DNA of 64,000 bases from the IMG/VR virus record IMGVR_UViG_3300011113_000415; one strand, 5' to 3'. The notes beneath the pieces were generated by a model, which was given only the letters and a program-made list of their open reading frames with translations, ran no database searches and was not told the origin of the DNA. This document shows positions 1,879 to 6,629 of this stretch, piece by piece. This DNA is from a virus (lineage: Duplodnaviria; Caudoviricetes). Numbering within the stretch: the stretch's first letter is position 1; each line of letters starts with the position of its first letter. The translations under genes and the position numbers were made by a program.

Positions 1879-1908
1879 TTGACACAGCCACCACTTTCCT
1901 TGTATAAT
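1879..1908 (+). promoter_or_regulatory. Sigma70-like promoter
   Basis: TTGACA (1879-84), 18 nt, TATAAT (1903-08). Confidence 0.8.
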
Positions 1909-1914
1909 GTCTAT

Positions 1915-2096
1915 GTGCATGAGCAAGGAGATTGGTGGCGATCTAATGGTGTGAGCGGGGTGATTCGATAACCCGGGCCCGACACAACCGTGGCAGGTAG
2001 ATATAATGCCCACAAGGTTGAGACACTGTCCAAGACTTAGAAATAGGTCAAAACCGACTGATACTCGGTGTATGCTCAAGTTGGAAATCACAGTGA
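1915..2096 (+). ncRNA. Candidate structured non-coding RNA or long 5' leader (family unassigned)
   Basis: Longest ORF-free gap after a consensus promoter; several complementary segments, a GAAA tetraloop hairpin and a possible pseudoknot (see findings). Confidence 0.55.
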
Positions 2097-2108
2097 AAGG
2101 AACGTTAA

Positions 2109-2435
2109 ATGTCTGTTAAAATAGAAGCCACTGATTCCATGCTTCAATCCCTTGACTCTCTTAGAACAACGGCCTTGCCCATGCACAAATTATATTTCGA
2201 ACTGTCAAGTGTTGACGCATGGTATGCCATCATGCGTGAAGCACGAGCACAGTTCGGGCAGAACTGGCGTTGTCAACGTCATGTCAAACGCAGATTGGAA
2301 CGTGCGCATATCTGGAATCCACCAGGCACCGCAGAGCGTGTTTGGTTTGAAGTGCCAGATCCTGCTTTTGGCACCTGGGTAGCCATTAAACATGCTGTAC
2401 GGGTAGTGGGTGCCCCAATAAATAAAGATCTATGA
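2109..2435 (+). CDS. Hypothetical protein (divergent member of small paralogue family)
   Basis: AAAGGA SD; C-terminal WFEVPDPAFGTWVAIKH resembles WFDIDDSAETTWLTLKY at 32227. Confidence 0.7.
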   Translation: MSVKIEATDSMLQSLDSLRTTALPMHKLYFELSSVDAWYAIMREARAQFGQNWRCQRHVKRRLERAHIWNPPGTAERVWFEVPDPAFGTWVAIKHAVRVVGAPINKDL

Positions 2436-4063
2436 TATTTGGTTTAGGTATCTTGGCCACTGCACTATTACTGAGTGTGGTGGCCGCTTACTACTCGGTA
2501 GCAGGTTTGACTGCTATCTTCTCAGCGGCCACGATACCAGTTATCATCATGGGTGCCAGTTTGGAACTAGGCAAAATTGTGGCCACAGTATGGTTGCACA
2601 ACAACTGGAAACGTGCCGGCATCATATTCAAACTGTATCTCATACCCGCGGTAGCATTTCTCATGCTACTGACTTCCATGGGTATCTTTGGATATCTCTC
2701 CAAAGCACACTCAGACCAAAGCCTGGTGTCGGGTGATGCTGTGGCCAAGGTTGCCATCTATGATGAAAAGATCAAGATATCCAAAGAAAACATAGATGCC
2801 AACCGTCGCGCTCTCAAACAAATGGACGAAGCCGTTGATCAGGTCATGGGCCGATCAACTGATGAAAAAGGTGCCGACAAGGCCGTGGCCATTCGCAGAA
2901 GCCAGCAACGCGAACGTGCCAGAATGTTGGCCGAAATTGAAACTGAACAGAAAAAGATAACCAGCCTAAACGAAGAACGAGCACCACTTGCGGCCGAATT
3001 CCGCAAGGTTGAGTCGGAAGTGGGTCCAATCAAATACATTGCGGCCTTGGTTTATGGCGACAATCCAGATCAAAACATACTTGAACGAGCGGTACGACTG
3101 GTCATCATCATGATTGTGCTGGTGTTTGATCCACTGGCCCTGACTCTGATTTTGGCTGCCAACAAACAGTTTGAGTGGGCACGACAAGGCACAGGAGGGT
3201 TCATACACGATGATCCCCCACCCCAGTATCCACCAGATGATGGCCCACTCACTGAAGATCAACTAGATCAAATACAAGCCAGTGCGGATCCACATCCACC
3301 CGGTTGGATGTTTAGAGATGATGCGGTCCAACCCGAGCCACCACCACCGCCCGACGATCCTATACCTTGTTACAAATGTGGCACACCTTTGGTAGACGCT
3401 CCCGGCATAGGCCTGTTCTGCCCTAACAAATCCTGTGATGTGATTGACAATGTGTCAGGAGAAGAGCCTGTTGAATTAACGGCACCAGTTAACTATCAAT
3501 TTTTGGATGAGCATCATGAACCAGACCTTCATGTGTATAATGACGAACGCTTGGTCAGTCGCTTTGACAAAATTCAAAGCGCGGAACGTCCAGGCGATTA
3601 TTTGACACCACCTGATGAAGAAACTGATGCTGAAAAAGAAGCCAAACGTCAATGGAAAAGTAAACATCCTGGCGAGACTGTGAAAGAACAAAGACGACTG
3701 CATGAAACAGGTGCAATCAACAGTTTGCCTTGGCAGGACTATATAAATCTGCAGGCCGACAATGACGGCATGCTGTTGAAGACGGGTCAATTGAAAGGCT
3801 TTGGAATTCGTTTCCCTGACAATCCTGTCAAGGGAGATTCATTCATTAGAGTGGATCAATTGCCCAGTGCTTTGTACAAGTACAATGGCATGAAATGGAT
3901 TGAAGTTGACAAAGGTCTCAGTGATCAATATGCCTATGACACAGCCTATATAGATCACTTAATTGACAAACTAACAACAGGCGAGTACGATCCTGAATTG
4001 CTGAATGACGCAGAAAGAGAACAAGTGGCACAACGCTTACAAAACAATACCAAGGGTGCATGA
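2432..4063 (+). CDS. Membrane-anchored coiled-coil protein with Zn-ribbon
   Basis: 3-4 N-terminal TM segments, coiled coil, further TM, Pro-rich linker, CYKC...CPNKSC. Confidence 0.75.
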
Positions 4064-5271
4064 TGGCATCTGATTTGCACAACACCTGCAGTTTTTGCGG
4101 CAAACACAAAGACTCAGTCAAAAAACTCATAGTAGGCGAAAAAGTAGGCATCTGCAATGAGTGTGTGGATTTTTGTCAAGGTTTGTTGATTGATGATTCT
4201 CCAAGATCCACAGATGCTGAACAGACACAACCAAGAAAACTGGACCCCATAGCACTCAAACAATATCTAGATCAGTATGTGATTGGCCAAGATTCAGCCA
4301 AGATCATGTTGAGTGTGGCCATTGTAAATCACTACAAGCGCATCAACAAAACTACTACAGAACCCGAACTGGAAAAGGCCAATGTGCTCATGTTGGGCCC
4401 CACAGGTTCAGGCAAGACCTTGTTGGCCAAATCAGTGGCACGCTATCTCGATGTGCCGTTTGCCATTGCTGATGCCACCAGCATAACCGAAGCAGGTTAT
4501 GTGGGCGACGATGTAGAAAGTTTGATCACCAGATTGTACACAGCCGCTGATGGAGATGTAAACAGAACACAACGTGGCATTGTGTTTGTGGACGAAATTG
4601 ACAAGATTGCTCGCAAAGGTGAAAGCACTTCAATCACAAGAGATGTATCAGGAGAAGGTGTACAACAAGCCTTGCTGAAAATGGTGGAAGGCACTGTGTG
4701 TCGCATACCAGCCGGAGGTGGCCGCAAACACCCATCCGGAGACATGATTGAAATTGATACTAGAAATATCTTGTTCATTGCCGGCGGTGCGTTTGTAGGC
4801 TTGGACTCAATTGTTAAGAATCGTGTGCAAGGAACTTCAATTGGATTTGGTGCTCGAGTAGAAAGTGATTCAAATGCTGACCTTGTGTTGACCACGCCTG
4901 ATGACTTGGTCAAGTATGGCATGATTCCCGAGTTCGTGGGACGTTTTCCCAACTGGGTCAGTTTGCAAGAACTCACCAAACAGGATCTTGTACACATTTT
5001 AACTGAGGTCAAAAACAACTATATCGAGCAGTACCAATGGCTATTTGCTGAAGATGGCGTCGAATTGCAATTCTCAAACGATGCTTTAGATACCATTGCT
5101 GAACGCACACTTGAAAGCCGAACAGGTGCTCGAGGACTACACAGCGAACTGGAACGTGTGCTGATGCCACACATGTACAATCTCAAACGCTATTCTGGAA
5201 TGGGAATAAAGTGCGTACAAATTGATCCTGTTTTGGTAAATATTCCTACAGCACTAGAAGGAACAAATTGA
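4060..5271 (+). CDS. clpX: ATP-dependent Clp protease ATP-binding subunit ClpX
   Basis: CSFCGK...CNECV zinc domain; GPTGSGKT Walker A; FVDEIDK Walker B; [14 protein letters not shown]. Confidence 0.97.
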
Positions 5272-5489
5272 AACTACACGGAAGATCAGTACTGGTACAA
5301 GATGGCAACGTTGAGCGAGCCCTGCGTAAATTCAAAAAGAAAATTGCAGAATCCAATCTCATAAACGATCTGCGCGACAGAGAATTTTACGAAAAACCCA
5401 CTACCACACGCAAACGCAAAAAGTCAGCGGCTCGAAATCGCTGGCGCAAAAAACTGGCAGAGCAACAACTGCCCCGAAAACTCTACTGA
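5268..5489 (+). CDS. rpsU: Ribosomal protein bS21
   Basis: [12 protein letters not shown]...[21 protein letters not shown]; TTG start. Confidence 0.92.
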
Positions 5490-5746
5490 TGTTTATCGAA
5501 TTCCAACTGCCCACTGGTTCTGCCGGTATGGCAGCAGGGATGGCCCTACAAAGAATACGTCGAGAACTCAAGTCCTGGAGTGATCGCTACGATATTGCCT
5601 ACACCAGCAAAACCGTAAAATACACACATCGAGTGTGTTTTGATTCGGACAGCCTGTACGATTTTTTTGTAATGAGTTGGAATCCCAAAGGCATTGATTA
5701 TTTGAATAGATATGTGGTTGTATCTGACCGAAATAATAGACCATAA
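5489..5746 (+). CDS. Small hypothetical protein (F-x-M-x-W paralogue family)
   Basis: RVCFDSDSLYDFFVMSW motif. Confidence 0.65.
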   Translation: MFIEFQLPTGSAGMAAGMALQRIRRELKSWSDRYDIAYTSKTVKYTHRVCFDSDSLYDFFVMSWNPKGIDYLNRYVVVSDRNNRP

Positions 5747-5829: not shown

Positions 5830-6261
5830 ATGACAAAAATCACATCTTTAGATCTCACCCCTTTCTACCGTAACACAATTGGCATGGACCGCCTGTTTGA
5901 CAGGATTGTCAGTCAATTTGATCATGCTACGCAGACCAACTATCCACCCTATGACATTGTCAAAACAGGGGACGACAGTTATGAAATTCGTGTGGCAGTG
6001 GCCGGCTTTGGCCAAGGTGAAGTTGACGTGACTTTCCATGAAGGTCAGTTGGTTATCACTGGCGAAAAGCGCACGGAAGAAAATGTCAACTATCTACATC
6101 ACGGCATCAGTGCTAGAAAATTTACACGCAGTTTTCAACTGGCAGAGTATGTGGAAGTTAAATCAGCAATTGCCCAGGATGGCATTCTCACAGTGTGTTT
6201 AGAACGCACGGTGCCCGAAACAGCCAAGCCTAAAACTATTGCTATCACCTACACTTCCTAA
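5830..6261 (+). CDS. ibpA: Small heat shock protein Hsp20 (IbpA-like)
   Basis: TNYPPYDIVK, EIRVAVAGF, YLHHGISARKFTRSFQLAEYVEV, DGIL. Confidence 0.95.
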   Translation: MTKITSLDLTPFYRNTIGMDRLFDRIVSQFDHATQTNYPPYDIVKTGDDSYEIRVAVAGFGQGEVDVTFHEGQLVITGEKRTEENVNYLHHGISARKFTRSFQLAEYVEVKSAIAQDGILTVCLERTVPETAKPKTIAITYTS

Positions 6262-6320
6262 TATAATTGTGTAAATACAGTAGCGGGACTGTCCCGCTAC
6301 TGAATCAACAAGGATCATTT

Positions 6321-6629
6321 ATGTCGCAAGCAGAAACAGTTGTAGCCACAAGAACACGAACTTCAGTTAAAGAACCCTGTTTATATCGGGTTATCTATCT
6401 CAATGACAACACAACCACCATGGAATTTGTGGTAGAAACCTTGATAGAATTCTTTGGATACACAGAAGAAACAGCCGCACAGATCACAGTTGACATACAC
6501 GATGCAGGATCAGCCACTGTGGCAGTGTTGCCATATGAGATTGCCGAACAAAAAGGTGGAGAAGTTACACTCAGTGCTAGATCACAGAACTTTCCGCTTC
6601 AGGTCAGAATCGAGCCCGACACAGCCTAG
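6321..6629 (+). CDS. clpS: Clp protease adaptor ClpS
   Basis: YRVIYLNDNTTTMEFVVETL...VDIHDAGSATV...YEIAE; AAGGA SD before ATG 6321. Confidence 0.93.
   Translation: MSQAETVVATRTRTSVKEPCLYRVIYLNDNTTTMEFVVETLIEFFGYTEETAAQITVDIHDAGSATVAVLPYEIAEQKGGEVTLSARSQNFPLQVRIEPDTA

Follow-up and report, generated by a model that had tools for sequence, protein, structure and literature searches.

In the leaders of ribosomal-protein operons, a bound factor blocks or traps the 30S subunit at the ribosome-binding site (RBS), and the resulting repression spreads down the translationally coupled operon. Riboswitches, ribozymes and RNAs such as ROOL, GOLLD, OLE and raiA have each opened new biology, and to our knowledge few new RNA classes of comparable size, conservation and complexity are left to be found. 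Here, we describe an RNA element at positions 1915-2096 (+ strand) of a 64,000-nt stretch of DNA (the window) from the IMG/VR record IMGVR_UViG_3300011113_000415, a virus of the Caudoviricetes. That a structured RNA is encoded at this position is, in our view, practically certain. The explanation we favor is a previously unclassified structured 5' leader of an operon encoding gp108, gp543, ClpX and the ribosomal protein bS21 in uncultured freshwater jumbo phages; taken together with the mechanism proposed below, we give it an even chance of being correct.

With the ribosomal-protein leaders of E. coli (L4/S10, S4/alpha, L20, L1), the element shares a structured 5' leader at the RBS of the first gene, the lack of a terminator-type platform and a coupled operon. 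It differs from them in showing no sequence or Rfam relationship, in that bS21 is not known as an autoregulator acting via a leader, and in its first genes, which are phage proteins without assigned function. Large riboswitch aptamers (cobalamin, lysine, M-box, glmS) resemble it in size (~160-200 nt), multi-helix junctions, long-range pairing, invariant junction nucleotides and position in the 5' untranslated region (UTR), whereas here no covariance-model match and no expression platform was found and the only gene context carries no metabolic theme. Phi29 pRNA, ROOL, GOLLD and the manA motif form a third group, that of self-assembling RNAs; they too are structured, linked to phages or prophages, and feature junctions and loops in intermolecular contact, and phi29 pRNA is additionally similar in size (~120-174 nt) and in its three-way junction. 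In contrast to these free transcripts, the present RNA is fused to an open reading frame (ORF) and has no Rfam match; the loop pairs of phi29 pRNA are moreover non-palindromic, and the phages that encode it are small and phi29-like.

Identity and homologues of the RNA

The original prediction, made from the bare sequence, had proposed a structured RNA with a pseudoknot, transcribed from its own promoter and assignable to no described family. The last point held: a cmscan of the whole window against Rfam 15 (4227 models) gave 0 matches at gathering thresholds, and a permissive search of 1800-2200 up to E 10 returned only a 7.4-bit match to the Dictyostelium signal recognition particle RNA (gathering score 90). 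Full-text literature searches found no paper describing the motif, and a study of freshwater phages encoding bS21 makes no mention of UTRs or non-coding RNA (PMC9723584). A structured 5' leader is a known kind of element; the family, the fold and the palindrome-bearing arm are new.

A blastn search with 1400-2700 against 50,697 GenBank phage records gave no match, so that no cultured relative is available. With gp108, the protein encoded directly downstream, as the query, 62 IMG/VR loci were recovered, with protein identities of 37-83%; several of these loci lie on contigs as long as 320-343 kb. The intergenic DNA of close relatives is 83-92% identical, and alignments of relatives display the promoter, invariant blocks and clear compensatory changes. 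At larger distances the RNA is more conserved than gp108, with ~70% nucleotide identity where the protein is ~47% identical. A covariance model (R1) built from 35 sequences recognizes a single copy in the window (1915-2111, 207.8 bits, E 1.8e-52) and one copy per locus in related loci, while a second model (R2) reaches a distant subfamily (L041, L043, L051-53, L057, L059). A loose DNA pattern scan of IMG/VR produced mostly chance matches; a stricter motif filter retained 13 of 119 loci, and 10 of these 13 were recognized by R1 as further family members. A protein-guided scan of Joint Genome Institute (JGI) metagenomes yielded 250 relatives of the gp108 gene. The best 80 of these ~250 metagenomic homologues were examined at locus level, and the RNA is present in every one of the JGI loci with enough upstream DNA (76/76). 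Model matches in the successive sets numbered 51, 58 and 76, pooling to 107 distinct full-length sequences, to which the conservation values and pair counts given below refer unless stated otherwise. The homologues come from freshwater phage contigs, with one RNA copy in each of three near-complete genomes of 320-343 kb, and the RNA is confined to a widespread lineage of freshwater phages of 320-350 kb.

Covariation evidence for the fold

Folding energy gave no indication of a structured RNA. The minimum free energy of the + strand is -47.8 kcal/mol compared with a shuffle mean of -49.2 (z +0.35), 127 of 200 dinucleotide shuffles fold as well as the + strand, and the - strand scores z -0.37. 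Since the energy is no better than that of shuffles, the helices folded by hand in the original prediction could have been chance on a single sequence. At the level of sequence, the proof of a structured RNA is the comparison of homologues and not the single sequence; folding-energy z-scores would miss an RNA of this kind, while comparative analysis proves it.

In a structure-neutral MAFFT alignment, 92.1% of the cells of an eight-helix consensus pair. Column shuffles reach 82.8%, and sliding the 3' partners by 1-3 columns leaves 28-39%; pairs with changes on both sides number 23 in the alignment versus 5-9 when slid. A wider, model-guided alignment gave 93.0% paired cells versus 36-38% slid, with 32 double-change pairs versus 11-17. 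When all column pairs were ranked by mutual information with average product correction, a procedure that assumes no structure, the top 14 all fell into the proposed helices, those of domain 1 being among the highest. The + strand is the functional one, because its G-U pairs, for instance 1947:1990 (U-G in 37 of 44 sequences), would turn into A-C on the - strand. The claim of a structured non-coding RNA was thereby borne out by strong covariation in eight helices. A first RNAalifold consensus had missed the whole 3' domain and proposed a pairing of GCAUG (1917-21) with UAUGC (2071-75) instead. The features of the element, including its promoter and the adjoining start of the first gene, are as follows.

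1879..1908, + strand: sigma70-type promoter TTGACA-N18-TATAAT (TTGACA 1879-84, TATAAT 1903-08), consensus score 12/12
1915..2096, + strand: structured RNA element, proposed operon 5' leader, based on covariance model R1 and 107 distinct homologues
1917..1932, + strand: 5' tail with near-invariant GCAUG (1917-21; GCA at least 97% conserved) and the purine-rich run AAGGAGAU (1925-32), similar to a Shine-Dalgarno (SD) sequence
1937..2010, + strand: domain 1, one long irregular arm of the helices Hb', Hb, Hc and Hd
1937-39/2008-10, + strand: helix Hb'; 1937:2010 is GC in 81, UA in 18 and AU in 8 sequences
1941-45/1998-2002, + strand: helix Hb, five pairs, all with compensatory changes
1946-53/1983-91, + strand: helix Hc
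1956-59/1978-81, + strand: helix Hd
1972..1977, + strand: apical hexamer CCCGGG of domain 1, self-complementary, candidate kissing-loop dimerization site by covariation
1988..1995, + strand: near-invariant CCGUGGCA, of which CCGU closes Hc and GUGGC is at least 97% conserved
2011..2023, + strand: interdomain linker with conserved AGG (2015-17) and UGAGAC/UGCGAC (2019-24); U2019, G2020, G2022 and C2024 at least 97% conserved
2024..2095, + strand: domain 2, a three-way junction of Px, Py, Pz and Pw
2024-29/2090-95, + strand: helix Px, CACUGU/ACAGUG, with compensatory changes at 2029:2090 (UA/AU) and 2027:2092 (UA/CG/GU/AU)
2030-33/2081-84, + strand: helix Py, CCAA/UUGG; 2032:2082 and 2033:2081 each with 4-5 pair types
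2034-39/2044-49, + strand: hairpin Pz, compensatory changes in 5 of 6 pairs, GAAA loop
2053-57/2065-69, + strand: hairpin Pw, compensatory changes, 7-nt loop CUGAUAC (CUGRUAC in the family)
2097-2101 and 2109-2111, + strand: SD AAGGA and start codon ATG of the 108-aa gene, from the sequence

The hand-folded structure fared differently in its two halves. In the 3' domain, the proposed helices GACTTA-GAAA-TAGGTC (2034-49) and ACCGA/TCGGT (2053-69) both covary and correspond to Pz and Pw. CACTG/CAGTG and TCCAA/TTGGA covary as well, only their register has to be corrected, with U2029 pairing to A2090 and not to A2085. The 5' half was not sustained: AGATTG/CGATCT (1929-44), GGGT/ACCC (1958-74) as well as CAACC/GGTTG (1985-2020) enclosing GTGG/CCAC display almost no compensatory change and many broken cells. 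Among the helices of domain 1 that take their place, Hb exists in four versions, all of them paired (AUCUA/UAGAU, GUUCA/UGAAC, UUUCG/CGAAU, GCUUA/UAAGC). Positions conserved to at least 97% cluster in unpaired strands, namely GCA 1917-19, GUGGC 1990-94, UG 2019-20, AAA 2050-52, GUA 2070-72 and GC 2074-75, and the junction strands CAAAAC (2049-54) and GUAUGC (2070-75) of domain 2 are near-invariant. The loop of Pz is GNRA or UUCG in relatives and variable in length. In a check for a tRNA-like domain, the 7-nt loop CUGAUAC of Pw was found replaced by other loops in relatives such as L045, and ARAGORN detected no tRNA or tmRNA gene in the window.

A possible pseudoknot had been placed between TGAGCA in the 5' tail and TGCTCA in the 3' junction, a pairing that the homologues do not support: it shows almost no compensatory change, position 1923 takes all four bases opposite the invariant C2075, and in 17 of 35 sequences 1923:2075 is unpaired. 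For the invariant strand UAUGC (2071-75), two alternative partners can be drawn, namely GCAUG (1917-21) and, within the internal loop of domain 1, GGCA (1992-95). The former pairing was rejected for want of covariation, A1919 being constant while 2073 takes all four bases. For the latter, 1995:2073 is AU in 99 sequences, GC in 2, UA in 1, UG in 1 and purine-purine in 4. A U occupies position 2073 in 99 of 107; of the eight sequences with another base there, six have a change at 1995 as well (two G-C, one U-A, one U-G, two G-A mismatches); the remaining two keep A1995 opposite a purine. Conversely, 1995 changes almost only where 2073 does. The outer pair 1992:2076 is GC in 65, GU in 38 and AU in 3 sequences. 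Because 1995 and 2073 change together while A1919 stays fixed, we propose, with moderate confidence, a pseudoknot between GGCA (1992-95) and UGCU (2073-76).

Upstream of the fold, the purine run AAGGAGAU of the tail has no pairing partner that we could find. All variants of the tail are SD-like (CAAGGAGAU, CAAAGAGAU, CAGGGAGG), and the run at 1925-1932 reads GGAGAU, GGAGGU or AGAGAU across the family, 170 nt 5' of the real SD. Either a standby site for ribosomes or a strand in a tertiary contact would be conceivable.

Palindromic apex

The hexamer at the apex of domain 1 is CCCGGG in 51 of the distinct RNAs, CCUGGG in 16, CCUAGG in 13 and ACCGGU in 8, and with G-U pairs allowed 1972-77 is self-complementary in 88 of 107. 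Its changes are concerted: 1972:1977 switches from CG to AU, and 1974:1975 from CG via UG to UA, with U-G intermediates. In divergent members, other palindromes occupy the same position (GACCGGUC, CACCGGUG, UCCGGA, UCUCGAGA). The element thus presents an apical self-complementary sequence whose palindromy is kept by covariation. Since such a palindrome cannot fold on itself, palindromy under selection marks a sequence by which one RNA copy pairs with another, and the apical hexamer suggests, as far as sequence comparison can indicate it, RNA dimerization via a kissing loop. This is a specific and falsifiable prediction. A minority reading, in which the 5' strand of Hd alternates between two tandem CCCG copies, accounts for many sequences but not for those of the ACCGGU clade.

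The dimerization initiation site (DIS) of HIV-1 offers a parallel in its GC-rich palindrome of 6 nt in an apical loop and in palindromy that is kept as the sequence changes; in some relatives the apical loop has 9 nt, GUUCCUAGG. The settings differ, with a packaged genome there and a phage mRNA leader here, and the flanking purines of the DIS are not conserved in the phage RNA. A more far-reaching idea is that the RNA represents a new self-pairing phage class, either a concentration- or ligand-sensing switch or an RNA-only or ribonucleoprotein assembly, that controls a phage operon for the remodeling of host proteostasis (ClpX) and ribosomes (bS21). We regard this as rather doubtful; if true, dimerization between RNAs would determine the regulatory state of an mRNA leader.

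Promoter, non-coding status and operon

The RNA lies in a gap of 234 nt between the stop codon of a 117-aa ORF (1874) and the ATG of a 108-aa ORF (2109). The consensus promoter claimed for it was confirmed with the full 12/12 score, and on this basis transcription by a host-type RNA polymerase is expected to start near G1915. A TTGACA/TATAAT-like promoter is found at equal distance 5' of the RNA in all homologues inspected. An internal promoter-like sequence, CCGACA-N17-TATAAT (1979-2007), is not conserved in other clades and was discarded. It was also correct that the last helix extends up to the SD of the following gene, Px stopping one base 5' of AAGGA (2097-2101); in the main family, AAAGGA stands one base 3' of Px. 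No terminator-like site was found in 1900-2110, i.e., none between the RNA and the ORF.

In agreement with the prediction that the gap holds no plausible gene, homologue comparison revealed no conserved ORF in 1875-2108. The longest ORFs across the region differ in frame and strand between homologues, 1-nt indels separate close relatives within the leader region, and column variability lacks a 3-nt periodicity (0.18/0.23/0.25 by phase), all of which argues that the region is not coding. A mini-ORF, AUG GUG UGA at 1946-1954, overlaps the invariant AAUGG of helix Hc. As other clades have not kept its stop codon, the AUG is probably retained for structure and not for translation.

Downstream of the RNA follows a tightly packed string of genes on the same strand.

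2109..2435, + strand: gp108, a virus-only protein, always behind the RNA
2432-4063, + strand: gp543, operon gene
4060-5271, + strand: ClpX-like ATPase with ClpX domains
5268-5489, + strand: ribosomal protein bS21 (S21p TIGR00030, E 1.1e-18)
5489-5746, + strand: gp85, end of the overlapping gene string

In the window, the genes at 2109-5746 overlap by 4 nt each. A gp108 homologue stands directly 3' of the RNA in all RNA loci and the element was never found away from this gene, whereas the gene 5' of the promoter varies. In nearly every relative with a locus that extends far enough, gp108, gp543 and clpX follow in this order, and in the RNA-bearing records of six relatives that reach far enough the S21 gene lies ~3.1 kb downstream on the same strand, as in the window. 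For gp108, no Pfam, PHROG or NCBIfam match was obtained. Its AlphaFold2 model (predicted local distance difference test 80.5) shows a small beta-alpha-beta fold, the N-terminus being disordered and yet conserved; the model has no significant match in PDB or among the AlphaFold database (AFDB) clusters, and in the ESM Atlas gp108 resembles only viral hypothetical proteins.

In the freshwater RNA-seq library X1, a 243-nt contig with 100% identity covers 1928-2170 and bridges the RNA and the ORF; as a single contig of low depth from a library that may contain DNA, it provides a weak hint of a co-transcribed leader. The DNA 5' of the promoter is not covered in this library, where uncovered parts carry no weight. 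Runs X2, X3 and X8 contained only diverged fragments, probably DNA.

Further genes surround the operon. Hsp20 (5830-6261) and ClpS (6267-6629) follow it and a membrane protein of the Bax-inhibitor-1 family is encoded at 488-1171, making up a neighborhood rich in proteostasis and translation genes.

Proposed mechanism and alternative explanations

A leader, a ribozyme or a phage sRNA had all been considered in the original prediction. Of these, the leader fits best, given that the RNA is always joined to the gp108 gene, that no terminator separates them and that the contig bridges both; the riboswitch variant lacks a typical expression platform, and nothing indicates a ribozyme or free sRNA. 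The transcript would start at ~1915, and its first 180 nt fold into two domains, tied together by near-invariant junction nucleotides and probably also by the pseudoknot 1992-95/2073-76. According to our proposal, the folded leader would act in cis on the initiation of gp108 translation, and translational coupling of the overlapping genes would spread the effect over the whole operon. It would thereby form a docking platform beside the RBS for a trans-acting factor, with gp108 or bS21 as first choice, as in ribosomal-protein leaders, and once occupied would get in the way of the 30S subunit or trap it. Through the palindromic apex, one leader would be able to pair with another, and the response could then depend on transcript concentration. 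As it heads a phage operon of ClpX and S21, the RNA likely gates the phage's takeover of protein quality control and translation.

That the leader acts in cis we consider probable. A translational operator bound by an operon-encoded protein is a more specific and clearly tentative proposal. It is favored because the anatomy is operator-like and the operon is coupled and encodes a ribosomal protein. The RNA lies upstream of an operon encoding bS21, and the fold adjoins the SD but leaves it outside. In the RNA of the window, no complement of AAAGGA that could mask the SD was seen (read by eye), so the fold looks constitutive; together with the absence of a terminator this means that two standard riboswitch platforms are missing. 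The whole scheme is directly testable, as the RNA is small and complete, has an E. coli-like promoter, is defined down to the base pair and comes with more than 100 natural variants.

Several observations weigh against this explanation. We know of no specific leader-RNA binding by bS21. Comparison with the 3' region of 16S rRNA (by eye) gave short resemblances only, none of them shared throughout the family. In its size, the conservation of its junctions and its pseudoknot, the RNA is closer to a metabolite aptamer or an RNA machine than to a typical protein operator, and it is better conserved than gp108. Transcript evidence comes down to the single X1 contig. Three distant gp108 homologues (L039:2965, L058:2986, L062:2983) are without leader RNA. 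L058 and L062 retain gp108-gp543 and S21 without it, L058 also clpX, which makes the RNA dispensable, an accessory of the operon and not its obligatory partner. In L058, a TTGACA...TAGTAT promoter stands a few nt 5' of the ATG, and in a protein alignment L058 and L062 lack the conserved disordered N-terminal segment (MSV.IE.S..SM..SLDSLK.T) of the RNA-bearing lineages included there. Finally, members of the distant subfamily (L041, L051-L053, L057, L059) have a further conserved 30-45 nt between fold and start codon, so that abutment to the SD is not universal.

Some of these features would suit a metabolite- or ion-sensing riboswitch, in which a ligand of a two-domain aptamer changes translation or Rho-dependent read-through. 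The RNA is a conserved, covarying, aptamer-like element in a 5' UTR, with a complex fold of ~180 nt, a probable pseudoknot and a position next to the RBS. The near-invariant junction nucleotides AAUGG, CCGUGGCA, UGAGAC, CAAAAC and GUAUGC point in the same direction, and the two mutually exclusive pairings of UAUGC could form a switch, although the GCAUG alternative is without covariation. Neither an intrinsic terminator nor, on reading by eye, a conserved SD-sequestering sequence is present, however. The single gene context of proteins without assigned function, ClpX and bS21 indicates no ligand, and no Rfam aptamer matched even at E 10. Taken together, we consider a riboswitch unlikely but, in view of the RNA's size, invariant junctions and pseudoknot, still a serious competitor.

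Alternatively, the RNA could be stable, processed or prematurely ended and function as a free molecule that dimerizes or oligomerizes via the apex and binds or titrates a host component (ribosome, RNA polymerase or a defense protein). The linkage to gp108 would then be merely positional, or RNA and gp108 would form a ribonucleoprotein. The palindromic hexamer, maintained in most members and replaced by other palindromes in divergent ones, would be in line with such a role, and the strong consensus promoter implies abundance. There is precedent in bacterial and phage-associated RNAs that form RNA-only homo-oligomers (PMC12286853; bioRxiv 10.64898/2026.07.01.735769). Speaking against it, no terminator or conserved processing site precedes the ORF, the RNA-library contig continues into the ORF and the element never leaves the gp108 gene. 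This renders a free RNA improbable.

Processive antitermination by a polymerase-modifying RNA of the put or EAR kind, or a role as 5' mRNA stabilizer, would be compatible with an RNA that begins within a few nt of a strong-promoter start, heads a tightly packed operon of at least 3.8 kb and has a seemingly constitutive fold. Still, the element is far larger and more conserved than put RNAs and matches no EAR model in Rfam, 2109-5746 contains no internal terminators needing read-through apart from weak consensus matches, and nothing specific favors either function, which leaves both highly improbable. For a self-cleaving or otherwise catalytic RNA the chances are very slim: invariant unpaired nucleotides and a compact pseudoknotted fold would be compatible with an active site, whereas no Rfam ribozyme (hammerhead, twister, pistol, hatchet, HDV, glmS, group I) matched and the contig of the RNA library is unbroken over 1928-2170. 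Small peptides in a micro-ORF relay, or a structure that is a chance product, can practically be dismissed, since the open + frame across the region in some relatives, the mini-ORF AUG GUG UGA and the z-score of +0.35 are outweighed by the differing ORF frames and strands, the 1-nt indels, the missing codon periodicity and compensatory changes far above both controls.

Distant subfamily and occurrence in other data sets

The additional segments of the distant subfamily were located at L041:2974-3003, L052:2995-3027, L057:1064-1097 and L059:2970-3003. Each consists of a small covarying hairpin (CAG/CUG or CAU/AUG) followed by (A/G)CUGUAUC...CGGAGAUCUCUAA. Within it, GGAGAUCUC is itself palindromic, and its AUCUCU could pair with GGAGAU of the 5' tail, a possible long-range 5'-3' contact around the RBS.

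In the genome collection, matches were limited to two contigs of one metagenome-assembled genome of Haliscomenobacter sp. (L182/L183; NZ_JBBAKG010000057.1 and ...31.1), each with its own version of RNA and gene; their proteins are 81% and 44% identical to that of the window. The explanation may be joint binning of two related jumbo phages into one bacterial genome, or else a host among the Saprospiraceae. Haliscomenobacter was not accepted as host, as the contigs may be mis-binned phage DNA, and a Bacteroidota host is disfavored because the phage has E. coli-type promoters and strong SD sequences. RNA and gene were also found together in the records AACY023431673.1 and AACY023291992.1 (L184, L252). 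Provided that AACY is the prefix of Global Ocean Sampling records, public data have contained the element for many years, undescribed.

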